Of a stretch of DNA of 55,802 nt, positions 2,184-55,802 are shown piece by piece. The position numbers and the translations under genes were made by a program. The notes under the pieces were generated by a model, which saw only the letters and a program-made list of their open reading frames with translations, ran no database searches and was not told the origin of the DNA. This DNA is from a virus (lineage: Duplodnaviria > Caudoviricetes): IMG/VR virus record IMGVR_UViG_3300043451_000181, positions 1 through 55,802 of that record; one strand, given 5' to 3'. Position 1 is the first letter of the stretch; every line of letters begins with the position of its first letter.

Positions 2184-2918
2184 ATGAACATGCTCGCAAA
2201 TCTGACGACCGACTCCTCCATTGCCGACGAAAAAGACTCCGTAGGCGGCGGTGGTGTACTCGAGTCGGGCATTTACGGCTGCAAAATCGCCATGGCCTAC
2301 TTGAGCAAAGCAGGCTCCGGCGCATTGGGCCTCGTGTTGACCTTGAAGACCGATGCAGGTCGTGACCTCAAACAGACTCTCTGGATGACGTCGGGTACTG
2401 CAAAGGGCGGCAAGAACTACTACGAGAAAGACGGTGAGAAGCACTATCTCCCAGGCTTTTTGCACGCCAACAGCCTCGCGTTGTTGACCGTGGGCAAAGA
2501 AATCTCTCAACTGGAAACCGAGACCAAAGTGGTCAACGTGTACAGCGCTGAAGCCAAGGCCGAAGTGCCCACGAAAGTGGAAGTGCTGATGGACTTGCTG
2601 AACCAAGAGATCATCGCTGGTGTGATCAAACAAACCGTCGACAAGACCAAGAAGAACGAAGCTGGTGCATACGAAGCCACGGGTGAAACTCGTGACGAGA
2701 ATGACATCGACAAGCTCTTCCGTGCAAAAGATCGCATGACCACCGCTGAAATCCGTGCGCAAGCCGAGACAGCGACGTTCATCGACACCTGGAGCAACAA
2801 GTGGACAGGCCAGACGAAAAACAAAGCCAAAGGTGCTTCCGGCACTGCTGGTGCTCCACAAGCCGCAGCAGGTGCTCCCGCTGCAGCCAAGAAGCCTACG
2901 ACTAGCTTGTTCGCTTAA
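2184..2918 (+). CDS. ssb: Single-stranded DNA-binding protein (N4 gp45-like)
   Basis: Synteny, KNYYEK...YLPGF motif and an Ala/Pro-rich tail ending SLFA, as in N4 SSB. Confidence 0.85.
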   Translation: MNMLANLTTDSSIADEKDSVGGGGVLESGIYGCKIAMAYLSKAGSGALGLVLTLKTDAGRDLKQTLWMTSGTAKGGKNYYEKDGEKHYLPGFLHANSLALLTVGKEISQLETETKVVNVYSAEAKAEVPTKVEVLMDLLNQEIIAGVIKQTVDKTKKNEAGAYEATGETRDENDIDKLFRAKDRMTTAEIRAQAETATFIDTWSNKWTGQTKNKAKGASGTAGAPQAAAGAPAAAKKPTTSLFA

Positions 2919-2940
2919 TAGCGAGCTCCGGTGAGTCCAA

Positions 2941-2971
2941 AGGGATGGTTTAATACCCATCCCTATTTTTT
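2941..2971 (+). terminator. Intrinsic terminator after ssb
   Basis: AGGGATGG-N8-CCATCCCT hairpin followed by ATTTTTT. Confidence 0.75.
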
Positions 2972-2989
2972 CGTCCACCAAGGAGCACT

Positions 2990-3187
2990 ATGAAAATCGA
3001 AGGTTCAACACCTGTCAAGCTCGAAGTGACTTTGGAAAATGTGACACACATCCTCAATGCCTTGGGTACCCAACCCTATGACAAAGTGGCCGGTGTGATT
3101 GCATCCATCCAAAGCCAGACAGCTCAGCAGATCAGGGCTTTAACTGAAACCGAACCGTCAAATCCTGATGGGGAGCAAAAGCCATGA
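2990..3187 (+). CDS. Hypothetical protein
   Basis: AAGGAG RBS; 65 aa with an IL-AL-xxPYxxV helical motif; overlaps the next gene by ATGA. Confidence 0.65.
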   Translation: MKIEGSTPVKLEVTLENVTHILNALGTQPYDKVAGVIASIQSQTAQQIRALTETEPSNPDGEQKP

Positions 3188-3468
3188 TCGAACAGCAAGA
3201 GAAACTGCCTCAAAAACTCACCGTTGCCGACATTTATTGCAAGATCAAGATGTCTGAGTACACGCTGCTAGGTGATGGTCGTACCACTGTTTGTCAACTC
3301 ACTCTTGAGAATGGCTTCACAGTGATCGGTACCAGCGCTTGCGTGAGCAAAGAGCAGTACAACCAAGCCTTGGGCGAGAAATTCGCCTACGAAAAGGCAT
3401 TTGAAGAGATTTGGCAACTGGAGGGCTACCTCCTGCGTCAACGTCGTTTTGAAGCTGGATTGGAGTGA
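3184..3468 (+). CDS. acb2: Acb2-like cyclic-nucleotide sponge (N4 gp49/Sf6 gp66 family)
   Basis: TTVCQLTLENGFTVIGTSACVS...GEKFAYEKAFEEIWQLEGYLL matches the family signature (NGFxVxGxSAC, IWxLEGYLL). Confidence 0.85.
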   Translation: MIEQQEKLPQKLTVADIYCKIKMSEYTLLGDGRTTVCQLTLENGFTVIGTSACVSKEQYNQALGEKFAYEKAFEEIWQLEGYLLRQRRFEAGLE

Positions 3469-3956
3469 CCATGAAGCAATACCTCGGGGTCAAACTGATC
3501 CACGCAAAACCCATGACTCGTCTGGAGTACAACAGCTTTCGCGGCTGGGATGTCCCCACGGACGAGAACCCAGACGACCCAGGCTACCTGGTGGAGTACC
3601 AAGATGGTGGCCAAGCCAACACCAAGGACTACGCCGGCTACGTGAGCTGGTCACCGAAAGCCGTCTTCGAGCGCGCGTATCACCCAACCGATGGCTTGAC
3701 CTTCGGCTTGGCGATCGAAGCCATGAAGATGGGCTACAAGGTGACCCGTGAGGGTTGGAACGGCAAGGGCATGTTCCTGTACTACGTCGGGGCAGATTAC
3801 TACCCCGTCAAGACAGAAGCTGCCAAGAGCTTCTATGGCTTGAACAGCATGGTTCCGTACCGTGCCTACATCGCCATGAAGACCGTGACCAACGAAGTGG
3901 TGCCATGGGTTGCCAGTCAATCCGACATCCTCGAATCTGACTGGATCATCCTATGA
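3465..3956 (+). CDS. tad2: Two-domain protein: N-terminal GYLVEY/SWSPK domain fused to DUF2829 (Tad2-like sponge); N4 gp48-like
   Basis: The C-terminal half FGLAIEAMKMGYKVTREGWNGKGMF...PWVASQSDILESDW is the DUF2829 signature. Confidence 0.75.
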   Translation: MTMKQYLGVKLIHAKPMTRLEYNSFRGWDVPTDENPDDPGYLVEYQDGGQANTKDYAGYVSWSPKAVFERAYHPTDGLTFGLAIEAMKMGYKVTREGWNGKGMFLYYVGADYYPVKTEAAKSFYGLNSMVPYRAYIAMKTVTNEVVPWVASQSDILESDWIIL

Positions 3957-4264
3957 GCGACGCTGTAGAAACCAAACCCGAAGCTGTCGAACAGGCTGAG
4001 ACCGTGCAAGTCACGGACCTCGATCAGTTCGTCAACCTCTTGATCCGCTGGCATGACACCAAGGTGCGTTTGCTCAAGCACATGCAAGAAATCCCGGCAG
4101 ACGCCGTTGTCGAAATCGATGGCGTGGACCATGCGTTCACACCAGAGATGCGACAAGGTTTCAACCTGGGCATCACCATTGCATTGAGTGAGCTCGGCAA
4201 CTTACCCTTCGCTGCTGAAGTAGACGAAGAACCTGCAGCTGCCAATGACGAGCAAAGTCATTAA
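3953..4264 (+). CDS. Hypothetical protein (N4-like conserved)
   Basis: 103 aa, overlapping both neighbours; GxxIALSELGNLPF motif. Confidence 0.6.
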   Translation: MSDAVETKPEAVEQAETVQVTDLDQFVNLLIRWHDTKVRLLKHMQEIPADAVVEIDGVDHAFTPEMRQGFNLGITIALSELGNLPFAAEVDEEPAAANDEQSH

Positions 4265-4826
4265 GGTTGTAGGTCAAGACCCCAGTCTTCGCAACTGGGG
4301 CCTGGCAGTTGGCACCCTGGATCTGGAAACCAAAAAACTCACGGTCGATTATGTTGATCTCACGAATCCTGTATTGCCCACCGGCAAGCAAGTCCGTCAG
4401 AATAGCACCGACCTTGAGTCAGCACTCCAGCTCTATAAAGGAGCCGCTGACGCCGCAATAGGCGCCCATGCAGTATTCGTAGAAGTCCCGGTCGGCAGTC
4501 AATCTGCTCGAGCGATGGCTTCCTACGGCATCTGCGTGGGAGTCCTTGGGGCATTGAGAGCGAACGGTATCCCCTTCTTCGAAGTGACCCCAACAGAGGT
4601 CAAACTTGCAACCGTAGGCACCAAGACAGCCACCAAGCAAGAGATGATCAACTGGGCAATGGCAGCACATCCTGAAGCTAATTGGCCCACGTACAAGCAA
4701 AAAGGTGAGACCATGGTGAGTGAGGCGAAAGCCGAACACATGGCCGACGCCATTGCTTCGATCTATGCAGGCATGACCTGCAATGCGTTTCAACAGATGC
4801 TGCCTTTCATCAAGGCAGCGAATTAA
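4245..4826 (+). CDS. RuvC-like Holliday junction resolvase
   Basis: VVGQDPSLRNWG (catalytic D), FVEVP (E), ATKQEM and EHMADA (C-terminal D): RNase H/RuvC fold motifs. Confidence 0.85.
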   Translation: MTSKVIKVVGQDPSLRNWGLAVGTLDLETKKLTVDYVDLTNPVLPTGKQVRQNSTDLESALQLYKGAADAAIGAHAVFVEVPVGSQSARAMASYGICVGVLGALRANGIPFFEVTPTEVKLATVGTKTATKQEMINWAMAAHPEANWPTYKQKGETMVSEAKAEHMADAIASIYAGMTCNAFQQMLPFIKAAN

Positions 4827-4837
4827 GGGAATACCAA

Positions 4838-5155
4838 ATGCAAATCCAATTCAAGCAAAGCGAAATCATTGCTGCACTGAAACAGTACATCGTGACTCAA
4901 GGCATCAACCTGCAAGGCAAGAGCGTGGAAATCGCGTTCTCAGCTACGCGCGGTGCTGCCGGTATCGTTGCTGATGTCACTATCGATGATGCCCAGATCC
5001 CTGGCTTCAGCGATGCAGCTGCAGATGATGCTAAGCCCGCCTTGACTGTGGTTCCCACCGCAGAAACCAAAGCAGCCGAAGAAGTCAAGCCAAAAGCTCT
5101 GGCTCCTGAAACTGCTGAAGGTCCCGCAGCACCGACCACGAGCCTTTTTAATTAA
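4838..5155 (+). CDS. Hypothetical protein
   Basis: 105 aa with RBS; Ala/Pro tail ending TTSLFN resembles the SSB tail (TTSLFA). Confidence 0.65.
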   Translation: MQIQFKQSEIIAALKQYIVTQGINLQGKSVEIAFSATRGAAGIVADVTIDDAQIPGFSDAAADDAKPALTVVPTAETKAAEEVKPKALAPETAEGPAAPTTSLFN

Positions 5156-5163
5156 GGCTGTGT

Positions 5164-5349
5164 GTGCAGTGGCTTAAAAGTATCGGCTACATCGTAGCCG
5201 CAATGCTGGCCATTGCAGTAGTCATCCTTGCAGGAACCTTCATCTCCGCAGTGCTTGCTGCCATCGGTGCTTTCATCGTTGGCGCCTTTGCTGTCGGATT
5301 CGTAGCGCTCCTGATCAAGGAACTCTGCGAAGGCGGATTGCGCAAATAG
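5164..5349 (+). CDS. Small membrane protein
   Basis: 61 aa with two hydrophobic segments; GTG start. Confidence 0.5.
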   Translation: MQWLKSIGYIVAAMLAIAVVILAGTFISAVLAAIGAFIVGAFAVGFVALLIKELCEGGLRK

Positions 5350-5402
5350 CGCATCTAAGATCAACCCGAGATCTAGAATAGTGGGGCTCTAAGCCACTAG
5401 AT

Positions 5403-5423
5403 TGACACCCCGGAAAGACGGGG
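5403..5423 (+). repeat. TGAC-R-stem-GARAGA motif, copy 1
   Basis: TGACA CCCCG GAAAGA CGGGG. Confidence 0.85.
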
Positions 5424-5717
5424 ACCATCACGTATGGGGACTGGCAACGGGTTAGCGCCGTTGTTCATTGCTTTTAGCCATGAGACTCCTTCCCTACACT
5501 GCTTTATGTGAGCAGTCCCCACCCGTGATGGTGAACGCAGTAGCGTAGGTTGAAAGCCCATAACAGGCCGTAGAGCTAGTAGCCATCAACCCATTACTCG
5601 AGCGACGGCCAAAGCCTGAACTCCATGTCCGGCCATGATACGGGGACCGGCACAAGCTGGATTGTTTGTAATTGCGACACGAGAACGCCTGGAGATCAGA
5701 AGTCCAGCAGAACGGCG

Positions 5718-5738
5718 TGACGCCTCGGAGAGACGAGG
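5718..5738 (+). repeat. TGAC-R-stem-GARAGA motif, copy 2
   Basis: TGACG CCTCG GAGAGA CGAGG. Confidence 0.85.
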
Positions 5739-5944
5739 ATTTTTTGTGAACTTGTCTTGGGCTGCTGCAGCGGCAGTGCTAGACGTTGACAAGACTCCCT
5801 TCGAAAGGAGCCCGGTCAACGAGACAAACCTCACGACGGTGCATCAAGACGAGTTCACAAAGAATCGAAACACGAAGACAAACAAGTTCAAGGGTTGCTC
5901 ATTCTAGATGTCGAGCGAACCTGAGGCTAACGCATCCGAGGGCG

Positions 5945-5965
5945 TGACATCCTGGAGAGACAGGA
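5945..5965 (+). repeat. TGAC-R-stem-GARAGA motif, copy 3
   Basis: TGACA TCCTG GAGAGA CAGGA. Confidence 0.85.
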
Positions 5966-6064
5966 ACCAAATTCAAGAGCAGCGGTAATATACGGACTAC
6001 CAGCATGAGCTACCAGGTACCGCGGTAAATCCTGGGGCAGGCAATAGTGCACACAAGCCTCGTA

Positions 6065-6085
6065 TGACACATCGGAGAGACGGTG
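6065..6085 (+). repeat. TGAC-R-stem-GARAGA motif, copy 4
   Basis: TGACA CATCG GAGAGA CGGTG (one U-G wobble). Confidence 0.85.
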
Positions 6086-6166
6086 CTTATGAATGGGGGT
6101 TACGCTTTTATATCGTGGCGATAGTAGCTGTAGGGTAACTTCTTACCTGTAGCCCCCACCCATAAG

Positions 6167-9100
6167 TTATTTAACGACTGCCAGCCCAGCCTGGACTGTC
6201 AAGAGCTCATCCAATACCCCTGGCAGCTGCAACGCACCCCCACGGAAAGGCATGTTGCCGGCGTGATGTACCAGTGAGGAATCCAGAACGATGGGTCCCA
6301 AATCCACAAATCTGTTCAGCAGAATCATGCTCAACGCCCGAGCAGGGCGTTCCCTCATCGTCTCGAACAAGACACGCTGCACACGGTAGAAGTACTTCAT
6401 GAAGGGCGTGAAGCCCATGTCATCTAGGTACTGCAAGTTGCGCTGCATTGGCACGTCGTAGTGCACGAATGCGTTCAAGGTCTTTAGGATCGCCTTGTCA
6501 TGGCTCATCGGTTCCTTGCCTGTGGTCAGGTGCTCGTACATCGCATAGCGAGCCACGAAGTCTGAGTACTGAGTAGCACGGCTGAGCACCTTGTAGAGCG
6601 GCGTGTCGTGGGTCATGTAGACCACCTTGCTTGCCTTGCGCACACTCTCAGGCAACTTGTTGGTCCACTTCTCCAGCTTCTCGCTGAGCTCGCTCTTGTA
6701 GCTGTAGGGATCTTCCTGCAGGTCCACGTCTTCCACGATCGTGGGCATCAAGCCAGCTTCGACCAACTTGGTCACTGGGTTGCGCGCGATCTCGTTCTGC
6801 AAGCGAACCACCTCTTGCTCGAGCACTGAGCGGTTGCCGGCATAGCCAGAGTCCAGCTTCATCTGGATTTCCATCAAGCGCTTGCTGTGCTCTTCGTAGG
6901 CCATGATGCCGCGCAGTGCCGTCCACTGACGCTTCCAGCCATCATCCACACCGAGCAACCAAAGCAACGACACGTTGCTGTGAATGTTGCCCAAGAGCGT
7001 GATCAAGTTCTTGACCACGATGATATCTTTGACTTCCTTGTAGATCTCCTGCCAGCCACGCTCACCCTTGACGACAGCAGCACCCATGCGTTTGGCCCAA
7101 TCGTCGGCTTCCTCTTGAGACTTGCCGCGGTACAGAGCCAGCGAGTTGAAGAGGTTGCGAGCCATGAGCTCCACACCTTCCAAGTCCTTGCGCTCCTTGT
7201 TCAGGAAGTCACCGGCCGAGAGTTTGCGGTAGCCGAAGATCACGTCCACAGAATCCTTGCGAACCATGATTGAGTCACGGCCCCAGATCTTGCGAATGTC
7301 CATGCGCGTCTGCTCAGGCAACAGGTCCCAGAGCTCGCGGTTCTCGGGATCGCTCGAGAGCGGACCGATCTCCACGTAAGACCAAGGCGTCACCGACTTC
7401 TCTACCGTGTACTGGGTCAAGAGCGCCGTGATCGCTTGCTCGTTCAGCTCACGGCCCTTGTGCTTGTCGATGATCGAACCAGCCAAGGTGCCCATGACCT
7501 TGTCGAAGCGGTTCTCGCGCTTCAAGATTCGATCCTTGGTTTTGCCACCCATCATGTGGGCCCAGTTCACGACGTGTCCGTTGTCGTTATAGACCGGAGC
7601 CACGTTCACTTGCTTGTTGGCCGTCGGATCGAAGTTCGTATTCGAAGCCATGGCAGCCAACTCACCTTGCTTGGCAATCATCACCGAGTTCTGCAGCGAA
7701 GCGTTCCACGTGCCTTGGTAGGTGTTCGTGTTCATGAACCCGTTGTGGATCATCGTGCCCTTGGCTTTCATACCCGTCAACGACATCACACCCGACACAC
7801 GACGGGTCAGACCACCGTCACGGCGGATGTAGATGTGCTGCTTCATGCCGTAGACACCGGCCGCATCAGGGACGTTCTTGTCTGACGTCACCAGGTCACC
7901 CTTCTCGTAGCCCTGGGCTACCAGGCGAGCACCCTCTTGCTCATTGGCTACCTGAATCGTCACGTAAGCATCGTAGATCTCAGGCGTGTAGCCATGGGTC
8001 ATCTGCACACGGTTGCCATTAAAGAGGCGATCTAGCGATTCCTGCTCCATGTCCTTGTGCAACTTCAGCATCAGGTCGACCCCGTTGCCATCGGTGCGCA
8101 GGTTCTCTTGCTCCATGATGGACGACACCGCTTGGCGATCCTTCACGGTGCTGTACTTGATCGCGTACAACGAAACCAACGAAGCAATCTTGCTCTCTTC
8201 TGCAGCGGCTTGGGCTTCGGTGATCTGGCCAGCGTATTGGGTGTCCAACATGCGAGCAATCACGTAGGCATTACGCATCAGGAACGGCACGGTGTTCAGG
8301 TCCGTGGCTTTGAAGTAGCCAAGGCCTTTGGCCATGTTGATGTGCATCTGCTTCAAGCCCGTCGTCAACGACGCTTCTACCGCGGCAATTTCTTGGTCCA
8401 ACGCGGTGTTGCTGCTGACCATCTGCGCAATCTGAGCCAACGAGTACTGACCCATCAAGTTGTGGGCACCGCTTCGCAGCAGCACCGAAGTCAATGCAAC
8501 CTTGTCTTCCTTACCCAACGACTTGCCGCCATTTTTGAACTCTTTCAGCAACACGCTGGCCGTTTGCGCGATGGCATTCTGGCGAAGGTTCTCGCTGTGC
8601 TTCGTCATCAGGAGCAAGGCCTGAACCAACTCTGCAGGGCCCTTCATCTCACGCATCAAGCCAGCCCACACACCATCACGCTCATCGGTGGCATGATCAC
8701 GCAGGCTTCGCAGTGCCGTCATCACGGCAGCAGCACGACCCGAAGCCGCCACCTTGCCGATCGCAGCACCCCACTTCACGATACCGGAGGAGGAGTTGCG
8801 AACGATCGGGCTGTTGGCAAAGTCGATGACCTTCTGCTTGGAGGCGTCGACCAGATCCTTGGTCATGTCTTCGACCACGGCGCCGTACTTCTGGAACGCG
8901 GTCTCACCGGCATTGGCCTTGAAGCGATGCTTGGCTTCGATGTCCATCAGGCGATCGACCAGTGCTTCCAACTTGGAGTCAGCCTTCTGACCCGCGTAGG
9001 TGTTGGTGGCCTTGTGGTTGAAGTAGGCCAAGATCTGTTCGAACCAAGCGTTCAAACGATCGAAGAGCGACTTCTCGTTGCCCACATTCACGCGACCAGC

Positions 9101-12100
9101 TTCCGTCTTGAAGTTCAGCAGACCCTTGAACTTCTCATTGGCTAGGCCCAGCGCAGCAAAGCGAGACAGGTAGTCCGAACGACCATCGTTGCCACCTTCG
9201 ATGTTGAAGACGAAAGCATGATCCGCTGCTGTGAAGCCAGCGTTCACGAAGTCCTGAACGGTCAGCGTTTCCTTGGCTTCGGTGAAGAGCTTGTAGAGCT
9301 CGCGGTATGCCGGCTTGGTGGTGATGTCGTTGATGCTCAGTGCCGAGGCCACTGTGGCTTCGACCTGCTCCATCACGAACACTTCCTGTGCACTGGCTGC
9401 AAAGTTGGAGTTCACCAACTTCGAAGCAAACGGTGCCACCCCAGTCTCGATCGCCTTGAGCCAAGCATCCATCGGAGTGCTGGCCATGGACGACTTCATC
9501 GCTTCCTTCAAGGTACCGAACGGACCGTAGACCGACTGCACCATGCCAGAGAGCAAGTTGCTCATGTGGCTTTGGAAGGATGGGCTGACGTTGCCCTTGT
9601 CCAAAGACTTGAACACTTGCTGGGCAGTGAACTCCGCCCCTGCTTGCTGGCTTTGCTGAGACAGATTGATGCTTGTGGTTTCGTTGGTTTGTTGGCTGGC
9701 TTCGTTGAAGAGACCAGACACGTTGCTCACCAACACCGACAGACCACTGTCCATGTTTTCATCAGGCTTCTTGTAGAGCAAGCCGACCAGCGTGGAGATG
9801 AACTTCTGCATGCCGGTCACCAGAGCACTGCCACGAGTCTTGGACTCGAAGGTGATCTTGGTCAAGACTTCCTTCTGGAAGTCCAGATTGCTCATGCCCC
9901 AAGCCACGAATTCTTGAACGTCATTCAGTGCCGCATCGAACTGGGTCAGGCCATTGGCTGCAGCGAACTCCTTGGCCTTGGCCATGAGAGATTCCAGCTC
10001 ACCCACCAGCTTCTTGCCTTCGGCCGTGGGGTTGGCAATCGTCTTGGCCACGGCGGCATGGATCAATTCATGCAGCAAGGTCTCAGCCGTCAAGCCAGAG
10101 TTCTTGAACTCAGGGCTCAGGACGTAGATCGACTCTGCATTGCCCTTCACCACGTACCAACCGCGTGAGGGGGACTTGGCTTTCTCGAGCACTTGCTCTT
10201 CCGTCGTGCGCGAGGTCACGTACTGGATCGGCAGATCAGCTGAGACCACACGGCTGACCAGTTGCAGCAACTTGCGGTTCACAGGGCTGAGGCGCCCTGC
10301 CGCCGACAACAGATCAATCACCTGCTTGGCCGTGGCATTCGGGTTTACCCTGAAGAATTCCACCAGATCACGATCGCTGGCGATGGCAGGCTTGCCCAAC
10401 TCACCGATCGAGCTCTTGCCGACCGTCTTGTCCTGCTCGATCACCACCGGATCGGCCTTTACGGACGTCTCAGCCAAGGCCTTATTCAGGGCCTCTGTGG
10501 CCGCAATGAGGGTTGGGTCTACCGCAGACACCTGCAGGTGCTTTTGGAGGGCTTCCTGCGCGTTTTGGCGGTCCTGCTTGGTCACCATGTACTCGCCACC
10601 TTCCCAGGTGTACTGGTCGATAGATGTCATCTGAGCCAAGGTCTCCAAACGGACGCGGTTGGCTTCGAACTGGGCACGGAAAGCCAGATCCAACACTACC
10701 GATGCCAGTTTGTCGTCAGCAATCTCGTTACGCAGCGCGTAAGGGAGCTGCGCACGCAGTGCCTGCTTGATGCCGGCCAGTGCTTCGGGGGAAAGTTCCC
10801 CTGCCTGAGCCATCTGGGCTGCGTTTTGCAGCACGCGCACAAGCATGTTGTAACTTTCGGTCGCTGGCGAGAATTTGAGCATGCCTTCCCAAGTCGATTG
10901 GTTGATGGCTTGGGCTGTTTTCTCCACATTGCCCACCCCGTTCGCCGCTTCGTCGTGCACGTTCAGTGTTTCAGTCCCGATCAGAGACATGTGCATGATG
11001 AAACTGTCCAGCGAGTGCATGAAGTACGGCAAACCGGCAACCCCGGGGTTGCGTTCGCTCTGAGTCAGGGCTTGACCCACGAATGTCGACACGGGATAGC
11101 CGTTTTTCTTCGGAATGCGCTTGCCCAACTGGATCTTGACGCGGTTGCTGGCCTCGTCGCTCGTCATTGGACTGTTCTTGGCCATCATCAGGCCAGCATC
11201 GAGCTCGTTGTTGTCGACCGTGTAAGCAGTGTTGGCCATAGGCATGATGGCCTTGACCTTCTCACGCAAGGCTTGCTCTTGAGCCATCGTCATGTTGTGG
11301 ATCGGGACCTTCTTGCCGTCACGTTCAACGGTGTCGATCTCGCCTGCCTCGATCAAGCGTTGGATTTCCTTGGCCTTGAGGTCTTGGTAGATCGCGTTGT
11401 AGATCTCGAACGATCCTTGGATCGTGCGGTTGATGTCATTGCGGCGGTTCAGGTACGTTTCGAAGTACGCCTTCATGGTGTCTTCAACACGTGAGCCGAT
11501 CTGCTCATAGAACTTGTCGGCCAGCTTTTGACGGTCTGCCTTCGTGAAGCGCTTCTCCATCAGTTCGTCGATGGGGGTGTTCTCGGACAGGTTGGTACCC
11601 AGCAGCTGGTTCAAACCAAAGATCAAATCCGCACGACTGGTCTTCTTGTCTTGGCCAGTGGCCACCGCTTCGATGCGGTCAATCACTTGCTGGACGAAAG
11701 CTTCCTGCATGCTGCGCACCGAACCATCAATGGACGAACCAAAGATGAAAGCGGTCAGCGGTGTCTTGGCCAGCTTGCGGCCGTCGGTGGTGACTTTTTC
11801 GTTCTCGTCGATCAGTTTTTTGGTAAAGACGCTGATGGCTGCAAAGTCCTTGGTCACGGCGATGCCGTTCAAGATCTGGAAGGCCAAGTCTTCGTACAGG
11901 TCCAAGCTGGTCGCGCGCTCGTACCAGTGGTTGTAGTTCTTGACGCCGTCGTCGCTCTTGTACATGCCGCCACGGTTCAGACGGGTGAACAAGTTCTTGG
12001 CCGTATCGGCAGCACCCAAAGCCAACTGAGTCAAGATCGGGCCGTTGGTCTTGCCGTCCACGCCCACCAGCATGTGCACAGTGACATCGTTCACGTCAGC

Positions 12101-15100
12101 ACCGGACTCTTGCTGAGCCACGGCATTCAACACTTTGCCGTAAGCCACCAGGGCCTGGAGAGATTGCATGCCTTCACGACCGGCAGCAAACTCAGCAACC
12201 TCTTGCTTCTGACCGCCGGTCAAGGCATTGGCATCATTGGATTCGATTGCCGCGGCAACGGCCATGGCAAGCTTCTTGATCGCACCGTCGTTCTCAGCCA
12301 TGCGATCGTTGAACAACTGCAGCGTGGCCACATTGTTCTGCTGGTCCACCTTGACCCCAAATGCCTGAGCCACGGCCAACTCGAATCGGTCCATGGCCTT
12401 GCGGTCGTTCAGGTTCAACTTGGTCACCCACTCAGGGCGGTAGAACATGAAGCGATGGATCTTGCTGCCTTGCAAGTTCATGTCTTGAGTTGCCACACCC
12501 ACACGGAAGTTTCGCCACACTTCGTAAGTCGCATAGAAGGCCTGCTCCAGTTTGTTGGGGCTGTTCTTCTCTGCGTCTTGCACCAAGTTCTTCATGCCTT
12601 CGAGCTGAACTTCCAAGCCGTCGTTCTTGGCTTGCATGTTCAAACGGTTCTCGACGTGCAATTTGGACTCGTCGTACTCCTTCCAGCCAGCGGCTTGCAG
12701 GATCACGGTGTCACCCAACACGTTCAACGCATTCCACATGGCTGGGATGATGCGATGGGGGACTTGCTGGGCTGCGTCCAAGATCTTGCGTTGCTTCTCG
12801 GTGATGTTCTGGCCGGTCTTCTTTGCGTAGGCCTGAGAAAAACGACGTGGGACCCAAGAAGCGTAAGCGGGTGAAGCCTCGGAGCTGAACATACGAGTCA
12901 GCACACCGCGTGAGCCTACGGAGGAATCCTTGATCTCCTTGTTGGCGCCGGTTAGCTTGAGATTGCTGCGAACCACGCGCACGTACTCAAACTGGGCAAA
13001 CTCGTTGTCCACGTTCAAGCCATCGATGAATTCGTTCATCTCGGCACCGGTGTAATTCACGGTGTCAATGAGGTCTTGTGAAGCCAAGAGCACAATGGCT
13101 TGCAGGCCAAAAGCTGTCTGCAGTTTGGCCATGTAATTGGCTTCGGCTTTTGCGTTGGCTTTCAGGCCCAAGGCGTCGACGATGTGCTTGCCGATGTTGG
13201 CAGCGGCACGGTCTTGCGTCGTGGCCAGATCCGACAAGGCTTTCATGCCCGCAGTGGTCACCGACAAGTCCATGTTCTCGCGCAAGCCATTCATCTTCAG
13301 GATGGCTTCGGAGTCCTTCAATGCCGTACCGTTGACGGTCTCAGCCATCCAGCTGTAGGCACCATAGGCAATGGCCGTGACGAGGTTCTCGTCCACCGAA
13401 CCATCTGCATTGAAGAAGTCTTGGAGCGGATCTTCGAACAAGAAGTCTGCTCGTGGCTTGACACCCTTTAAATTGGCCAAGCCACCCTTGATCAATTGCT
13501 CACGGATCAGGGGTGCCCACTTATTGGCAAACTTCTGGAAGTTGGTCAGCGAGCCAATCTCTTCGTCGGTCAATGACTCTTGGAAGAAGTCCGTGGGTAC
13601 CACTGTGCCGGCATTCCACAGGCTCAGCAGGTTGCCGACCGACACCAGGGGACGATCCTTGGCGATGTCCGCATCCTTTTCGATGCGCTTCTTAGTCTGG
13701 GTCAGGAAAGCCACAGCCTTGTTGAGGGTGCGATACACAGCACCCAACTTGGTACCTGCAGGCAACACTTCATCGGCCGACTTGTCTTGAAATACCGACA
13801 AGCCTTGAGTGCTCGACGCATCTTCAAGTGCCGCTTCGGGCACGTCTTCGACTGTGGTACCTTCCTCAGTAGACTGGGTTTCAGCTGTAGTCGACTTAGT
13901 AGATTCAGTCGACACAGTTTCTACAGTCTTCGCAGAAGAGCCGGAGGCTTCCTCAGTTACTCCATCGGCTTGAGCCGCTTCAGCTGTGTCAGCTGACTTG
14001 CTGCTCTGTACATCTGGCTTTGCGGATCCTTGTTCATCGCTTGCAGCTCCTGCTTCGGCACTTGCTTCTGCCGGGGCCGTAGCTTGCTCTGTCGAGCTCT
14101 CTTGAACTCCCGGGGCGGGTGATACGTTCTTGACATTGGAACCACCAAACTTGACTTTGTACGCTGCAGTCAGCTCGTCATAGGCAGAACTCAGTGCAGC
14201 TGCTTCAGTTTGGATTTCCCGCGGCAACTTTGCCGATGCCTTGGTGATGTCCAAACCACCGTTTTCTTGACGGGCGTCTGCCGAAGCAAACTTGCCCTCT
14301 TCCACTTTCCAATTCCCATCGGCCAAGCGCACCAGACGGCGATCAGCGCCGCCGGCCTTGACTTCGGCATAGGCATCGGTGACCAACTTGGCTTTCTTGG
14401 CATGGCCTGTGGCAAATGCCTTGAGCAGGATCAGGAAGCGTGCAGCTTCCTTGCGGTCTCCAGTGGCCAGTGCATTGCCGACTTCCTCTCGGTAGTCCTT
14501 GATGCCCAGCATGCGTGGTTTGCCTTTGGTAGGGTCGGCCGCTGCACCCAGGTAAATCTCTTGGCTGGTCTCACCCATGGTGAGCAGACTGTTGGCATGC
14601 GCACGCGCCTTCGAGAACACACGGAAGTACGCGCGCTGGTCTGCAGTCAGGCTTTCTGACTGAGCCAATCGCTGAGCTGTCTCATCGGACAAGCGCTCAG
14701 GTGCAGCCATCGACAAATTGATGATCTTGTCGGCTGCTGCTTGTGAAGCCACAGGGTCTGCGGCCGTGATGTTCTTGGCTTCCGCTTCGACATCCACATC
14801 AACCGACTGCAGGTCTTTACGAAAACGGGAGACCGTGTCCTTGGATGCCTGAATCTGGTCTTCCAATGCAGTGATTTCTTGCTGGCGAGTGGCCAACGTC
14901 TCTGCTGCAGCCTTCTCATCGAAGCGATCAATCTTGCCTTGCACACCATCGATCCATGTCTTGATGACATTGACCTGATTGGTGTCGGTAGGATCGGTTG
15001 CGGCCAGCGCATCGTTGGCCATGGCCAGATCTGCTACCAGACCTTCCTTGGTGATGCGGCTCAAACTGTTTTTCAGCGTTTCCACATGGGTCTGCGCATC

Positions 15101-16483
15101 CGACACCACCTTGGCGGCTTGCTCGAGTGCTGCTTGCTTGTCCTCTGCGGACTTGCCTTCTTGCGATGCAATGGCTTGAAGACCTTGCACAGCCAAACCA
15201 GGGTTGTAGGTCGCGCTCTTGGGATCGACTAACGCAGACACGTCGCCGCTTGCGATGATTGCCTTGAGCGTGTCCTGATCGCTGCTCTCCTGTACACGTG
15301 CAACGGCGAGATTGCGAATCGACTCAGGGACTGTGGTGTTCAGGGCTTGCACCCCACCACCCAACAAGCCACCCATGAAGGCGCCTTGGCCGGCAGCATT
15401 ACCCACACCCTCAGCCAATGACTGGTTGGGGTTGATCTGTCGGGTAGCGACGTTGTTGAGGAACTGGCCAGAGCCTTCCTCCAAACCTTCTTGGGTACCT
15501 TCGGCAGCAAACACCTTGGGCACCATGCCGATGCTGGCCTTACCCTTGCCAACGAGAGCCTTCTCGAGGGCAGCACCCCCGGGGACCATCTTGGTGCTCA
15601 GCAACGAAGCGCCGGCTGCGGCCAACGTGGCTTTGCTGGCCAGGTCGGATGCGATTTCCTGTTTGGCTGCGTCGGCACCCACCTCTTGCGCGCGGGCGAG
15701 GTACTCAGGGTTCTGAAGCCAGAGGTCATCTGGCAGGGCCATGAGGCGTTGCATCGTGTCAGAGCCGACATCGATGCCCTGCAACCCAGCACTGAAGCCA
15801 ACAGCACCGGCTGTAGCGCTCTTCTCGAGAGCGGCTTCACCCAACTTGGTAGCGGCCAGCTTCGGCGCTGCCTTGGCGGCAACCTTGGCACCGGCTTCCA
15901 CGGTACGGCCGACCTTGCCGGTCACGCCCAACTGTGCGGCTTGCTGAGCCAAGAACTCAGGGATGCTCGTGGGATCCTTCATGGCTTCCCAGAAAGACGA
16001 TCCGAACTCGGTAGCCACCTGAGCCGCTGTGCCGGCAAGCCCATCACCCACGGCATCCTTGACGGCTTGGCCACGTTCGGCCGTGACAGCACTTTTTTCT
16101 TGGGTCTTGTACTGGGACAAGGCCGATTTCATCTTCTCTTGATCGTCTTGCCACTCGCTGAGTTTTTGCGTGGCAGGACCATAGAAATTGCCAGTCATGG
16201 CCTTGTCGACAACCATGGTGGGCAGCTTCAGAAGCGTTTCTGCACCTTGCACACCCGCCAGACCCACATCAGCAAAGTCTTCCAGCACCGAAGAACCCGT
16301 GCGGCTCTTCCAATAGAGATCGTCGTTGCGGGTATTGGTGCGAATTTCTTCTTTCAGCTGCGCAATCTTCTCATCGCTGGCTTTTTGCACCGCATCGTAC
16401 TTGGCATTCAGACCGTATTCCTTTTGGCGGTCCATTTCTTGAGTGATGCGGTCGTTGAAGTAGTCGCGGTAACTGTCTGCCAT
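6167..16483 (-). CDS. Virion-encapsidated RNA polymerase (N4 gp50-like vRNAP)
   Basis: 3438 aa with no Cys seen on reading, a known vRNAP hallmark. T7-like motifs: A (GVDGKTNGP), B (RKLAKTPLTAFIFG), C (LNVHDE). Located at the end of the late operon. Confidence 0.96.
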   Translation of the reverse strand: MADSYRDYFNDRITQEMDRQKEYGLNAKYDAVQKASDEKIAQLKEEIRTNTRNDDLYWKSRTGSSVLEDFADVGLAGVQGAETLLKLPTMVVDKAMTGNFYGPATQKLSEWQDDQEKMKSALSQYKTQEKSAVTAERGQAVKDAVGDGLAGTAAQVATEFGSSFWEAMKDPTSIPEFLAQQAAQLGVTGKVGRTVEAGAKVAAKAAPKLAATKLGEAALEKSATAGAVGFSAGLQGIDVGSDTMQRLMALPDDLWLQNPEYLARAQEVGADAAKQEIASDLASKATLAAAGASLLSTKMVPGGAALEKALVGKGKASIGMVPKVFAAEGTQEGLEEGSGQFLNNVATRQINPNQSLAEGVGNAAGQGAFMGGLLGGGVQALNTTVPESIRNLAVARVQESSDQDTLKAIIASGDVSALVDPKSATYNPGLAVQGLQAIASQEGKSAEDKQAALEQAAKVVSDAQTHVETLKNSLSRITKEGLVADLAMANDALAATDPTDTNQVNVIKTWIDGVQGKIDRFDEKAAAETLATRQQEITALEDQIQASKDTVSRFRKDLQSVDVDVEAEAKNITAADPVASQAAADKIINLSMAAPERLSDETAQRLAQSESLTADQRAYFRVFSKARAHANSLLTMGETSQEIYLGAAADPTKGKPRMLGIKDYREEVGNALATGDRKEAARFLILLKAFATGHAKKAKLVTDAYAEVKAGGADRRLVRLADGNWKVEEGKFASADARQENGGLDITKASAKLPREIQTEAAALSSAYDELTAAYKVKFGGSNVKNVSPAPGVQESSTEQATAPAEASAEAGAASDEQGSAKPDVQSSKSADTAEAAQADGVTEEASGSSAKTVETVSTESTKSTTAETQSTEEGTTVEDVPEAALEDASSTQGLSVFQDKSADEVLPAGTKLGAVYRTLNKAVAFLTQTKKRIEKDADIAKDRPLVSVGNLLSLWNAGTVVPTDFFQESLTDEEIGSLTNFQKFANKWAPLIREQLIKGGLANLKGVKPRADFLFEDPLQDFFNADGSVDENLVTAIAYGAYSWMAETVNGTALKDSEAILKMNGLRENMDLSVTTAGMKALSDLATTQDRAAANIGKHIVDALGLKANAKAEANYMAKLQTAFGLQAIVLLASQDLIDTVNYTGAEMNEFIDGLNVDNEFAQFEYVRVVRSNLKLTGANKEIKDSSVGSRGVLTRMFSSEASPAYASWVPRRFSQAYAKKTGQNITEKQRKILDAAQQVPHRIIPAMWNALNVLGDTVILQAAGWKEYDESKLHVENRLNMQAKNDGLEVQLEGMKNLVQDAEKNSPNKLEQAFYATYEVWRNFRVGVATQDMNLQGSKIHRFMFYRPEWVTKLNLNDRKAMDRFELAVAQAFGVKVDQQNNVATLQLFNDRMAENDGAIKKLAMAVAAAIESNDANALTGGQKQEVAEFAAGREGMQSLQALVAYGKVLNAVAQQESGADVNDVTVHMLVGVDGKTNGPILTQLALGAADTAKNLFTRLNRGGMYKSDDGVKNYNHWYERATSLDLYEDLAFQILNGIAVTKDFAAISVFTKKLIDENEKVTTDGRKLAKTPLTAFIFGSSIDGSVRSMQEAFVQQVIDRIEAVATGQDKKTSRADLIFGLNQLLGTNLSENTPIDELMEKRFTKADRQKLADKFYEQIGSRVEDTMKAYFETYLNRRNDINRTIQGSFEIYNAIYQDLKAKEIQRLIEAGEIDTVERDGKKVPIHNMTMAQEQALREKVKAIMPMANTAYTVDNNELDAGLMMAKNSPMTSDEASNRVKIQLGKRIPKKNGYPVSTFVGQALTQSERNPGVAGLPYFMHSLDSFIMHMSLIGTETLNVHDEAANGVGNVEKTAQAINQSTWEGMLKFSPATESYNMLVRVLQNAAQMAQAGELSPEALAGIKQALRAQLPYALRNEIADDKLASVVLDLAFRAQFEANRVRLETLAQMTSIDQYTWEGGEYMVTKQDRQNAQEALQKHLQVSAVDPTLIAATEALNKALAETSVKADPVVIEQDKTVGKSSIGELGKPAIASDRDLVEFFRVNPNATAKQVIDLLSAAGRLSPVNRKLLQLVSRVVSADLPIQYVTSRTTEEQVLEKAKSPSRGWYVVKGNAESIYVLSPEFKNSGLTAETLLHELIHAAVAKTIANPTAEGKKLVGELESLMAKAKEFAAANGLTQFDAALNDVQEFVAWGMSNLDFQKEVLTKITFESKTRGSALVTGMQKFISTLVGLLYKKPDENMDSGLSVLVSNVSGLFNEASQQTNETTSINLSQQSQQAGAEFTAQQVFKSLDKGNVSPSFQSHMSNLLSGMVQSVYGPFGTLKEAMKSSMASTPMDAWLKAIETGVAPFASKLVNSNFAASAQEVFVMEQVEATVASALSINDITTKPAYRELYKLFTEAKETLTVQDFVNAGFTAADHAFVFNIEGGNDGRSDYLSRFAALGLANEKFKGLLNFKTEAGRVNVGNEKSLFDRLNAWFEQILAYFNHKATNTYAGQKADSKLEALVDRLMDIEAKHRFKANAGETAFQKYGAVVEDMTKDLVDASKQKVIDFANSPIVRNSSSGIVKWGAAIGKVAASGRAAAVMTALRSLRDHATDERDGVWAGLMREMKGPAELVQALLLMTKHSENLRQNAIAQTASVLLKEFKNGGKSLGKEDKVALTSVLLRSGAHNLMGQYSLAQIAQMVSSNTALDQEIAAVEASLTTGLKQMHINMAKGLGYFKATDLNTVPFLMRNAYVIARMLDTQYAGQITEAQAAAEESKIASLVSLYAIKYSTVKDRQAVSSIMEQENLRTDGNGVDLMLKLHKDMEQESLDRLFNGNRVQMTHGYTPEIYDAYVTIQVANEQEGARLVAQGYEKGDLVTSDKNVPDAAGVYGMKQHIYIRRDGGLTRRVSGVMSLTGMKAKGTMIHNGFMNTNTYQGTWNASLQNSVMIAKQGELAAMASNTNFDPTANKQVNVAPVYNDNGHVVNWAHMMGGKTKDRILKRENRFDKVMGTLAGSIIDKHKGRELNEQAITALLTQYTVEKSVTPWSYVEIGPLSSDPENRELWDLLPEQTRMDIRKIWGRDSIMVRKDSVDVIFGYRKLSAGDFLNKERKDLEGVELMARNLFNSLALYRGKSQEEADDWAKRMGAAVVKGERGWQEIYKEVKDIIVVKNLITLLGNIHSNVSLLWLLGVDDGWKRQWTALRGIMAYEEHSKRLMEIQMKLDSGYAGNRSVLEQEVVRLQNEIARNPVTKLVEAGLMPTIVEDVDLQEDPYSYKSELSEKLEKWTNKLPESVRKASKVVYMTHDTPLYKVLSRATQYSDFVARYAMYEHLTTGKEPMSHDKAILKTLNAFVHYDVPMQRNLQYLDDMGFTPFMKYFYRVQRVLFETMRERPARALSMILLNRFVDLGPIVLDSSLVHHAGNMPFRGGALQLPGVLDELLTVQAGLAVVK

Positions 16484-31830: not shown

Positions 31831-31850
31831 TGGGCTCCGCCCATCTGTGG
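31831..31850 (+). promoter_or_regulatory. vRNAP hairpin promoter P2
   Basis: TGGGC-TCC-GCCCA-TCTG-TGG. Confidence 0.8.
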
Positions 31851-32603: not shown

Positions 32604-32622
32604 GGGCTCCGCCCTTTGGTGG
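32604..32622 (+). promoter_or_regulatory. vRNAP hairpin promoter P3
   Basis: GGGC-TCC-GCCC-TTTGG-TGG upstream of the Drc/gp2-like gene. Confidence 0.8.
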
Positions 32623-33027: not shown

Positions 33028-33046
33028 GGACTCCGTCCGTGGCTGG
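33028..33046 (+). promoter_or_regulatory. vRNAP hairpin promoter P4
   Basis: GGAC-TCC-GTCC-GTGGC-TGG upstream of RNAP II subunit 1. Confidence 0.75.
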
Positions 33047-51692: not shown

Positions 51693-51817
51693 GCAACTAC
51701 GACCTTAAGTTCTGGATCTTCGTCTTCGTCCTGTTCTTCCTCTTCCAAGGTGAACCTGACGTCTGGGACTACCTGCGTGCCCGCACCGGCCTGACCGTGG
51801 AGGGCTGCAGCAAATGA
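51689..51817 (+). CDS. Small membrane protein
   Basis: ATGA-coupled; FWIFVFVLFFLFQGEPDVWD. Confidence 0.55.
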   Translation: MSNYDLKFWIFVFVLFFLFQGEPDVWDYLRARTGLTVEGCSK

Positions 51818-51996
51818 TCTCCACCTGGATCCTCGTGGTCTTCCTCACCAGCTCTACCAACAGTGCTGCCGGAGGACCCTTCATCATCGAAAACATCATC
51901 AACCAAGACGAGTGCTTGCGTGTGCAGGAAGTTGTTGAGCGTCGTCTCAGAGCTCCCCGCGCGCTGTGCATCGAAGTCAGAAAGACCAAGCCATGA
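51814..51996 (+). CDS. Small protein with N-terminal hydrophobic segment and two Cys
   Basis: WILVVFL...ECLR...ALCIEV. Confidence 0.55.
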   Translation: MISTWILVVFLTSSTNSAAGGPFIIENIINQDECLRVQEVVERRLRAPRALCIEVRKTKP

Positions 51997-52211
51997 CCAA
52001 AATCAAACACCTCCCCAGCCAGACCTACGAACCCTACGTGCCCAGTAAGGCTCAATTCGTTCGCCCAGGCGGCATGGATGCCTACGAGCTCCCTTCCCGC
52101 GTCGGTGACCAGCGTCACCCCTACAAGCCGCCATCCAATGGCTGCGTAGGTGTGCTGAAGGACCGTACCTCTCACACTGGCCAGTACCAGGAGAACAGGA
52201 CTGGTCGATGA
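51993..52211 (+). CDS. Small hypothetical protein
   Basis: ATGA-coupled; RPGGMDAYELPSR motif. Confidence 0.55.
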   Translation: MTKIKHLPSQTYEPYVPSKAQFVRPGGMDAYELPSRVGDQRHPYKPPSNGCVGVLKDRTSHTGQYQENRTGR

Positions 52212-52411
52212 GGATCGTCAAGCAAAAACTTAACCGACAAGGTAAAGAAGAAGTCACCGTGGTTCTCGAGCCAGGTGACAAGCTCATGTGCTTCCGTGAC
52301 GACCGGTACTTCCGTCTCGGGGGTCAAGTCGATGAAGTGATGGCAGGCCACGTCATCACCGAGTCTGAGCACGTCGTCTGGTGCTCCATCGAGCAACGGT
52401 GGGTGGCATGA
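52208..52411 (+). CDS. Small hypothetical protein
   Basis: ATGA-coupled on both sides. Confidence 0.55.
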   Translation: MRIVKQKLNRQGKEEVTVVLEPGDKLMCFRDDRYFRLGGQVDEVMAGHVITESEHVVWCSIEQRWVA

Positions 52412-52635
52412 GCCTCATTGCACCCATGTCCCCCGAAGAAGCCAGTGCCATCAAGGCCGGTGAGACGCTCTACGTCGAGAAGATCACCGTCCATGGCACC
52501 TACAAGAGCGGCGTTCAGTTCGTTCGTGAGTACCCCGCGGGAATTCACTTGAACCAACTGGACCGCATCTTTCTCAACTACGGTATCGAGTACCCAGACC
52601 CCATGGCTGAGGACCTCGATCCCAGAACACACTGA
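52408..52635 (+). CDS. Small hypothetical protein
   Basis: ATGA-coupled start MSLIAP. Confidence 0.55.
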   Translation: MSLIAPMSPEEASAIKAGETLYVEKITVHGTYKSGVQFVREYPAGIHLNQLDRIFLNYGIEYPDPMAEDLDPRTH

Positions 52636-52640
52636 CCATC

Positions 52641-53060: not shown

Positions 53061-53081
53061 AAAGGGCCCCGTAGGGCCCTT
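53060..53081. terminator. Terminator between convergent operons
   Basis: AAGGGCCC-CGTA-GGGCCCTT. Confidence 0.7.
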
Positions 53082-53085
53082 GTCT

Positions 53086-55801: not shown

Positions 55802-55802
55802 A

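Follow-up and report, generated by a model that had tools for sequence, protein, structure and literature searches.

Several described systems share features with the element treated here, a hairpin motif of 21 nt that occurs four times in a gap of ~800 nt (positions 5370-6166) of a 55,802-base viral sequence, IMG/VR record IMGVR_UViG_3300043451_000181; this whole stretch is referred to as the window. One example is boxB of the lambdoid nut sites, which acts in nascent RNA and combines a short stem and a purine, tetraloop-like loop with a conserved single-stranded neighbour, a layout that the motif, its loop being putatively tetraloop-like, shares; additionally, the lambdoid phage mEp390 carries two copies of the motif in an early leader. 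Measured against the 5-bp stem and tetraloop-like pentaloop that characterize boxB, the motif has a stem of 5 bp and a loop, GARAGA, of six bases starting with GARA. It differs further in its flank, in reaching up to four copies per array, and in its occurrence in N4-like, T1-like and other phages and beside tRNAs. A nut system also includes boxA, an N-type protein and a site in each early operon; no N-like partner or boxA was found near the motif, boxA not having been searched by model, and both mEp390 copies lie in a single operon.

Another example is the hairpin promoter of N4-type virion RNA polymerases, which resembles the motif in joining a conserved flank to a hairpin whose stem is free in sequence but must pair, and which is likewise at home in N4-like phages. 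These promoters are hairpins with a loop of 3 nt that arise on the template strand, ahead of early genes (PMC4496689, PMC9163698). The motif, in contrast, has a loop of six bases and folds on the sense strand (G·T to A·C, 37 to 1; see below), and it ends a rightward operon instead of preceding early genes at the first-entering genome end; this identity was rejected. Similar in position is the orf69-orf70 small-RNA cluster of phage LUZ7, which follows an SSB/recombination module and precedes the virion RNA polymerase gene. The LUZ7 study describes several small RNAs of under 250 nt in this syntenic gap, abundant late in infection, and suggests that one of them, which has no start site of its own, originates by processing (PMC9163698). 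Small RNAs at the same position show that the tails of rightward operons can be small-RNA loci. The two gaps nevertheless share no sequence similarity, and no TGACA/GARAGA hairpin is present in that of LUZ7.

CRISPR repeats, RNA anti-CRISPR mimics and type III antitoxin arrays resemble the locus in that a short hairpin or repeat punctuates unrelated inserts, and they are cut into units by a dedicated nuclease. In the arrays described here, however, the stems differ within one array and the inserts are folded RNAs of 100-300 nt (99-294 nt in the window), not spacers; with no cas gene among the annotated neighbours, nor a toxin gene, a CRISPR-like array was rejected. tRNA punctuation and RNase III sites are comparable as structured elements that stand between co-transcribed units and define their ends, and tRNAs and helices of ~20 bp do adjoin the motif, but a 5-bp hairpin is too small as a tRNA mimic or RNase III substrate. 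GOLLD and ROOL, large ornate RNAs of prophages, are also non-coding phage regions, of 400-900 nt and often beside tRNAs; unlike them, the present locus gives no Rfam match at E-values up to 10, and its content is modular and shuffled, not one conserved fold.

Searches for a described family agree with the preliminary description of this locus, which was made from the sequence alone and recognized none. The Rfam 15 models gave no match in the window at gathering scores, and only miRNA-like long-hairpin noise in 5300-6250 at E-values up to 10. In 20 viral loci they found tRNAs and one unrelated small RNA only, in six cultured-phage loci tRNAs and a weak match resembling transfer-messenger RNA (tmRNA), none of them on the motif, and in the array of locus L064 no match at E-values up to 10. 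A full-text literature search returned no description of the motif, although sequence motifs are not reliably findable by words.

The motif and the modules it separates

The window contains four exact matches to the pattern TGACRNNNNGGARAGAC, at 5403, 5718, 5945 and 6065 and all of them on the + strand, and 100 dinucleotide-preserving shuffles of the window contain no match to it. The loop word GGARAGAC alone is not enriched (six matches vs 4.9 expected), and the signal therefore resides in the whole motif. A covariance model (R1), built from the N4-like clade only and searched against the window and the collected loci, finds the four motif sites and no others in the 55.8-kb window, with 33.7-50.4 bits, the next-best match reaching 9.7 bits (E 3.4). 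Copy 1 reads TGACA-CCCCG-GAAAGA-CGGGG (5403..5423, +; 50.4 bits), copy 2 TGACG-CCTCG-GAGAGA-CGAGG (5718..5738, +; 47.1 bits), copy 3 TGACA-TCCTG-GAGAGA-CAGGA (5945..5965, +; 40.4 bits) and copy 4 TGACA-CATCG-GAGAGA-CGGTG (6065..6085, +; 33.7 bits). Thus, the stems (CCCCG/CGGGG, CCTCG/CGAGG, TCCTG/CAGGA and CATCG/CGGTG) differ in sequence and always pair, the last with one T·G pair, and the copies are spaced 315, 227 and 120 nt from start to start.

Compared with shuffles, the + strand of the gap folds with a z of -5.8, the - strand more weakly (z -3.7). In the predicted fold, every motif hairpin is flanked by a larger helix on both sides. The helix before each copy closes on or beside the T of TGACA (ATCTAG..CTAGAT, ACGCC..GGCGT, ACGC..GCGT and ATACG..CGTAT, in array order), and after copies 1, 2 and 4 a long helix begins at the first base past the stem (ACCATCACG..CGTGATGGT, a 125-nt hairpin at 5740-5864 and CTTATGAATGGGGG..CCCCCACCCATAAG, respectively). 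Mechanical calling yields only open reading frames (ORFs) of 53-90 aa in the gap; five of these were without a match in PHROG, as were the two longest in Pfam. Everything that the preliminary description had reported as seen, i.e., four copies, their spacings, paired stems of differing sequence, helices ending at or beside the T of TGAC and the lack of a credible ORF, is thereby confirmed.

The array opens with a hairpin at 5372..5402 (+), predicted by minimum-free-energy folding, in which ATCTAG..CTAGAT encloses AGTGG..CCACT and which abuts the T of motif 1; hairpins of this type precede the motif in two relatives, L005 and L010, too. Right after motif 1 begins a long helix domain (5424..5532, +), predicted to pair as ACCATCACG..CGTGATGGT and GGGGACTG..CAGTCCCC, the base of which, ACCATCA..TGATGGT, recurs in relatives. 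The second structured module (5533..5717, +) ends in ACGCC (5685-5689)..GGCGT (5714-5718), whose final pair includes the T of motif 2; the 3' portion of this module, CAGAAGTCCAGCAGAACGGCG, is kept in 13 relatives, with ACGCC/GGCGT changing to AAGCC/GGCTT. A T run, i.e., a terminator-like site, follows copy 2 and none of the other three. The next module (5739..5944, +) consists, according to the fold and an alignment of the hairpin, of a perfect long hairpin of ~125 nt (5740-5864) and the short helix ACGC..GCGT, which ends on the T of motif 3. Copies 3 and 4 enclose module 3 (5966..6064, +), a structured RNA of ~100 nt that is conserved in an alignment of relatives and closed by ATACG (5990-5994)..CGTAT (6061-6065). 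Finally, the terminal long hairpin (6086..6166, +), predicted to form between CTTATGAATGGGGG and CCCCCACCCATAAG, stops one base short of the position where the convergent polymerase gene has its stop codon. In relatives, even where the motif is present just once, a homologue of this hairpin comes after the final copy.

Covariation, module exchange and spread

A query with the RuvC-like protein encoded upstream of the gap yielded 38 related viral loci, 18 of which contain the exact pattern, always on the gene strand and always in the same gap. Relaxed scans added one further locus (L035) and a variant copy in L019, and the covariance model added L021. Among the 29 related loci that hold both borders of the gap, 19 carry one to four copies and 10 carry none. 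Covariation was assessed on 29 distinct copies from the window and the related loci, chosen by sequence pattern alone and with none dropped. In this set, 145 of 145 stem cells are paired, both sides being changed in 45; none of 500 shuffles equalled this covariation, and a shifted 3' partner pairs in 24-47%. Two of the upstream helices also covary in relatives, ACGCC..GGCGT as noted above and ATACG..CGTAT, which becomes ACACG..CGTGT. The covariation that had been reported within one genome is real, but it belongs to a widespread, phage-enriched element and is not a peculiarity of that genome.

The relatives, with zero to four motif copies, carry modules in differing sets, numbers and orders, the recurring recognizable ones being the CAGAAGTCCAGCAGAACGGCG module, the GAGCAGCGG module (module 3) and the terminal hairpin. 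The 227-nt unit of the window (5739-5944) is absent in L007, L017, L019 and L020, where the CAGAAGTCCAGCAGAACGGCG and GAGCAGCGG modules adjoin. When the GAGCAGCGG module is aligned across 7 relatives, 15 of its 30 predicted pairs show compensatory change. In five near-complete related genomes, the motif is confined to this gap with two exceptions: a one-mismatch match elsewhere in G002, and an exact second copy in G004, which lies with a GAGCAGCGG-type module between two genes of another cluster and is followed by an intrinsic terminator. This module-3 homologue (L044) is thus located, with its own motif, elsewhere in the genome of a relative. These arrangements accord with the suggestion of the preliminary description that unrelated, base-paired modules are exchanged between the motifs, and covarying homologues with variable modules, which it had named as a means of support, were found in related phages by the covariance model and the pattern scans.

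One contig of sequencing run X16 joins 5713 to 5941 and thus leaves out precisely the unit of 227 nt by which copies 2 and 3 are separated; this joint, which has a depth of 5 and 88% likeness and may stem from a relative, agrees with the arrangement in L007, L017, L019 and L020. Where relatives lack the motif, the last ORF is directly followed by a hairpin that has a GUAA loop, similar flanks and a covarying stem. It is seen in L013, L014, L011 and L020 about 7540-7600 (columns 115-150 of alignment A3), with CGACT on its 5' side, ACT(A/C)T(C/T)AAG on its 3' side and a stem of CATCCC/GGGATG vs CACACC/GGTGTG. The same hairpin also occurs upstream of motif units in other relatives.

Beyond this clade, a scan of IMG/VR contigs with the pattern TGACANNNNGGAGAGACNNNNNAC returned at least 101 loci; among the matches listed, a perfect 5-bp hairpin is present in 82 of 101 viral loci, as against 16 of 120 loci that match the same pattern in cellular genomes sampled at one per bacterial or archaeal species. 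The fold is phage-enriched and widespread. A second viral scan with GTGACANNNNGGAGAGAC, in which the 3' flank was left free, gave at least 191 distinct instances when pooled with the earlier loci. Among the matches listed, 150 of the 191 fold, whereas we calculate that random letters would do so in ~2% of cases, or (6/16)^4. These listed matches show a preference for the stem GCCSG and often GGCG in the 5' flank, while the 3' flank has A at +1 (121 of 150), then A or C, and C at +3 (95 of 150), a conservation that appears even though the pattern had left these positions free. Where three or more of the pairs are Watson-Crick (155 instances), a deviating pair is G·T 37 times, A·C once and another combination 5 times, an asymmetry from which it follows that folding takes place in the motif strand, most simply in the form of RNA. 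Reading frames are not preserved through the motif.

The element also runs with its surroundings. The gene caller used was crude, and 81 of 163 instances were excluded because it placed them within long spurious ORFs; where genes were called on both sides (66 instances), both run in the direction of the motif in 41 and both opposite to it in 3. tRNAs within 300 nt are all on the same strand, 19 starting downstream, 15 ending upstream and 0 lying on the opposite strand. The distances from stem to tRNA are 4, 4, 5, 5, 5, 6, 6, 6, 7, 11 and 12 nt (11 of 163 instances), so that a tRNA starts 4-7 nt past the stem in 9 of 163, and the motif directly follows a ...CCA end in contig L112 and in phage CS01. 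Tandem motif copies are often found at distances of 60-100 nt. Within 4 kb, no protein family accompanies the motif constantly, the most widely shared one reaching 14 of 98 loci; the annotated neighbours include terminase, integrase, ThyX and ADP-ribosylglycohydrolase, and no transposase or nuclease gene shared near the motif was found. Complements of the loop or of TGACA are not enriched within 200 nt.

Short blastn queries located the core (22-23 nt) in many cultured phages, unrelated ones among them. These are the N4-like phages Pokken, Paxi, Piffle and PB119, the lambdoid coliphage mEp390, the T1-like Cronobacter phages CS01, ESP2949-1 and SG01, Acinetobacter phage Alexa, Klebsiella phage P7641, Pseudomonas phages Medea1, Cruim01 and Itty13, several cyanophages and others; E. 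coli, Cronobacter, Stenotrophomonas and Pseudomonas syringae are among the hosts. In every cultured case examined, the motif lies in an unannotated gap of 380-880 nt, which is blank in the record or filled with doubtful small ORFs, and the model built from the N4-like clade recovers it in Medea1, CS01, Alexa, mEp390 (twice), P7641 and Pokken. In Pokken it follows gp40, about 350 nt ahead of a tRNA cluster; in Alexa it follows the integrase gene; in CS01 it is upstream of small ORFs and terminase genes, and in a group of viral contigs it is likewise upstream of terminase genes; and in Itty13 it stands beside tRNA-like pieces with long extended stems. The two mEp390 copies are in a leader of ~650 nt past a promoter-like site beside the repressor gene. 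Parts of this leader occur in 36 of 5426 E. coli genomes, none covering at least 80% of the query, and they are unannotated in the 12 listed.

Several further identities were tried and rejected. ARAGORN and a tRNA model find no cloverleaf in the window that would point to a tRNA or tmRNA. An intrinsic terminator does not fit, since a T run is present at copy 2 only and the 3' flank reads A-A/C-C in the 150 instances. For a sigma-70 promoter, a scan of 4800-6800 finds none; TGACA is -35-like, but the -10 position reads AAC/ACC, and tRNAs start 4-7 nt past the stem. By eye, the core is without bases that are essential in hammerhead and hepatitis delta virus-like ribozymes, and the Rfam models find nothing. 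The put RNA of HK022 is described in its source as a different two-stem RNA, and the motif is absent from 22-32 kb of HK022. At the intervening segment of permuted tmRNA, three alphaproteobacterial genes carry a different hairpin. No pseudoknot partner was found for the loop or for TGACA.

A proposed punctuation mark and its alternatives

The reading we tentatively prefer, giving it a little under an even chance, is that of a portable RNA hairpin that is recognized by another molecule and separates co-transcribed structured RNA modules. Its stem needs only to pair, whereas the loop, the closing G-C and the flanks are fixed and no complement lies nearby, which argues that the hairpin is read by another molecule. 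Since the motif strand folds and the element runs with transcription, it should work in the sense transcript, and its position between folding RNAs at a fixed short distance from tRNA 5' ends fits a punctuation or maturation mark. Judging from these sequence features, the hairpin probably marks a processing or binding site. The interpretation offered in the preliminary description, a protein-binding or processing tag, boxB-like or an endoribonuclease site, that marks or releases exchangeable small-RNA cassettes, is thus partly supported. The comparison with boxB would fit the class of loop (GARA plus GA), and relatives without the motif have a GUAA-loop hairpin with similar flanks at the same place.

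The proposed element would span ~25-30 nt. In it, (G)YGACA leads into a 5-bp stem with a closing G-C pair, the stem carries the purine loop GARAGA, viewed as a tetraloop-like GARA followed by GA, and A-A/C-C comes last. It would act on the sense strand, set between RNA modules that fold independently and share a transcript; these may be long hairpins, conserved small structured RNAs, tRNAs, or tRNA-like or tmRNA-like pieces. In the window, four copies would split the untranslated tail (~800 nt) of the rightward replication/recombination operon into exchangeable modules. Its reader could be a protein or ribonucleoprotein common to many hosts or to many phages. tRNA 5' ends are made by the cut of RNase P. 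The likeliest mechanism would be a maturation mark placed 4-7 nt ahead of the 5' end of the next module, an end that RNase P would make in the tRNA case; after such a cut, the hairpin would remain as the 3'-terminal hairpin of the preceding module. We regard the motif as a candidate cis-acting hairpin that punctuates polycistronic RNA, and there is a fair chance that it is more than this. The motif, its pairing, the strand that folds, its distribution and its distance from tRNAs are observed; transcription and cleavage of the array, and the partner that reads it, we infer.

A broader claim, which we consider possible though distinctly less probable, is that phages of many families share an RNA punctuation mark read by a conserved cellular enzyme such as RNase P, or by a universal RNA-binding factor, and use it to string together, mature and exchange small RNA genes as cassettes. 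Such a system would be integron-like for RNA genes, i.e., tRNAs, tRNA-like and tmRNA-like RNAs and possible decoys, and the array in the window would be a cassette store beside a Tad2-like anti-defence gene. If the motif is a recognition or processing mark, it offers a simple means of locating, by sequence, hundreds of non-coding RNA loci that are unannotated in phages. If true, this would also make it possible to test how small RNAs are matured and exchanged by phages, among them tRNA-like and tmRNA-like RNAs with a possible action on host translation or defence, and would supply a compact building block of 25 nt for constructs of polycistronic RNA. The question is directly testable in cultured carriers from four host groups.

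Several observations weigh against the punctuation reading. Four sequencing runs were compared with the window, two of them metatranscriptomes and two labelled RNA-Seq but probably DNA. In the metatranscriptomes, contigs cover 2410-5383 (X15) and 5121-5352 plus a stretch of 34 bases (X18); no contig of these two low-depth data sets lies on 5384-6004, while the upstream genes are covered. At such depth, the lack of cover says little either way and is not evidence of silence. The motif occurs once among 15-34 tRNAs in large arrays (L112, L116 and L131) and therefore does not serve as a signal for tRNA processing in general. Within the window itself, the next helix begins directly after the stem, not 4-7 nt later. 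The absence of the motif from 10 of the 29 related loci with a complete gap means that it is dispensable, and pattern and model searches find no copy in the small-RNA gap of LUZ7. Additionally, a single-stranded-DNA hairpin on the same strand would show the G·T bias too, and the presence of the same 22-23-nt core in unrelated cultured phages could reflect horizontal spread instead of a shared reader.

Among the alternatives, one that we hold to be unlikely, yet to deserve serious weight, is an architectural role in which the purine-loop hairpin docks on a neighbouring helix and aids the folding or assembly of long phage non-coding RNAs, with no cleavage, much as tetraloop contacts do in the large ornate RNAs found near tRNAs in prophages. 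The GARA start of the loop would suit such docking, as would the GUAA-loop hairpin that occupies the same place in relatives with similar flanks and compensatory stem changes. The helix before the motif is moreover often a conserved GAACGCC..GGCGT (GAACGC lies no more than 60 nt upstream in 35 of 155 instances), and the motif is always inside helix-rich gaps of 150-900 nt. However, it is also found between plain tRNA genes and by ORFs with little other structure, the neighbouring helices are wholly different between phages, no large-RNA family of Rfam matches even weakly, and the conserved single-stranded flanks would be left unexplained. More doubtful is an elongation signal, i.e., a boxB-like hairpin in the nascent RNA that loads a factor on RNA polymerase or shields the transcript from Rho, so that untranslated arrays and the genes behind them are transcribed. 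The 5-bp stem and purine loop would resemble nut-site hairpins, and an elongation signal would account for the two leader copies in mEp390, for those upstream of terminase in CS01 and the viral contig group, and for that upstream of the tRNA cluster in Pokken. It agrees poorly with the window and its relatives, where only the convergent polymerase gene lies downstream, and with the opposite early operon of mEp390, which has no copy within the 5-kb stretch searched. Nor is there a conserved partner gene within 4 kb (best family, 14 of 98 loci), and the polymerases of the carriers differ, N4-like phages using their own enzymes and others that of the host.

The remaining two explanations appear improbable. 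One places the element at the level of DNA, as a single-stranded hairpin that serves as an N4-kind promoter, a priming site or a strand-specific nuclease or transposase site. A nuclease or transposase site would also account for the spread among phages, and the core is identical in unrelated ones; no transposase or nuclease gene is, however, shared nearby. As for promoters, N4-type polymerases do use hairpins as such (PMC4496689), and, in LUZ7, early and middle start sites are 13-15 nt from the hairpin centre (PMC9163698), a distance comparable, by our count, to the 12.5-15.5 nt between the loop centre and a tRNA 5' end located 4-7 nt past the stem. Yet the folded strand of the motif is the non-template strand for rightward genes, whereas N4-type promoters need a hairpin on the template strand (PMC4496689). 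The early-promoter candidates of the window look different, with GGRCTCCGYCC three times upstream of early ORFs, and the motif is co-oriented with transcription. Furthermore, most carriers are outside the N4-like family known for such polymerases (lambdoid, T1-like and integrase phages, the genomes of which were left unsearched for a polymerase gene). The least probable explanation of those weighed is a set of terminators or insulators, in which hairpins and long helices merely stop convergent transcription units. It would match the location of the array between such units, the T run after copy 2 and the end of the last long hairpin one base before the polymerase stop codon, and the ends of metatranscriptome contigs of two studies at 5352 and 5383 give a weak hint in the same direction. 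Nevertheless, a T run follows just one of four copies, termination needs no fixed loop or flanks, tRNAs that start 4-7 nt after the motif elsewhere would need a promoter of their own, and other copies lie inside operon leaders.

Genomic setting and further observations

The window is a fragment of an N4-like phage, represented by one IMG/VR record and ~77% complete. The ORF at 6167..16483 (-) encodes a protein of 3438 aa that matches the virion RNA polymerase family phrog_2206 over its full length (1753 bits) and is convergent with the array; its closest cultured relatives share just 37% identity, and blastn with the gap finds no match in cultured phages. The gap extends from where the rightward replication/recombination operon ends to the stop codon of the convergent polymerase. 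Upstream of it, the + strand encodes a Sak4-like annealing protein, SSB, an N4 gp49-family protein, a Tad2-like-domain protein, a Gam-like protein and a RuvC-like resolvase. Two small ORFs close this rightward block, the last of which (5164..5349, +; 61 aa in the ORF list) precedes the non-coding gap and gave no match in PHROG and Pfam. The protein at 3465-3956 (+) has a domain like Thoeris anti-defence 2 (Tad2-like; 85 bits), and the next ORF, 3953-4264, is Gam-like. The array had been placed just downstream of anti-defence genes; the Tad2-like domain and the Gam-like protein fit this, while the block is otherwise one of replication and recombination (Sak4, SSB and RuvC-like).

ARAGORN and a tRNA covariance model find no tRNA in the window or in 27 related loci, and the gaps of the window and of L041 give no weak tRNA match either; T-arm-like words are present in L006, L008 and L041. 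In module 3, the unpaired stretch AGCAGCGGTAATA is kept in all 7 relatives (alignment A2). It would resemble a universal loop of 16S rRNA, a relation that no model supports; the same applies to the apparent resemblances of modules 1b and 3 to RNase P RNA and 16S rRNA.

Farther along the window, the GGRCTCCGYCC copies are at 31832-31842, 32604-32614 and 33028-33038 (+). Each forms a 4-5-bp stem with a 3-nt loop and is followed by TGG 11-13 nt from the loop centre and by small early ORFs downstream, and they are likely early promoters of the N4-type virion RNA polymerase. These sites put the genome end near 31.2-31.5 kb. A leftward ORF block (51705-55802, -) follows the early/middle genes, which run rightward, and closes the window on the right.

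Among the cultured carriers, the annotated gp36 of mEp390 (L266, 2229-2471; 80 aa) overlaps a motif copy and structured non-coding sequence and is probably not a gene; the same structured sequence is found in Klebsiella phage P7641 in a different order. The gap of CS01 (L271, 1395-1774) contains a promoter-like site and a motif placed directly after an end in ...GCCGCACCA. It also holds a tmRNA-like tag frame, ANDDLMLMAA followed by a stop. This gap matches the permuted-tmRNA model weakly, its 27 bits falling short of the cut-off, and ARAGORN finds no tmRNA in it. In Itty13 (L273, 1154-2035) and Medea1 (L272, 1193-1961), tRNA-like pieces with D-arm and T-arm words sit on long stems. We take these pieces to be reminiscent of tRNA-like Y RNAs, to which the Rfam scan of Medea1 gave no match. 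The long stems of both gaps share the base CTGCATCGGAG..CCGATGCAG.

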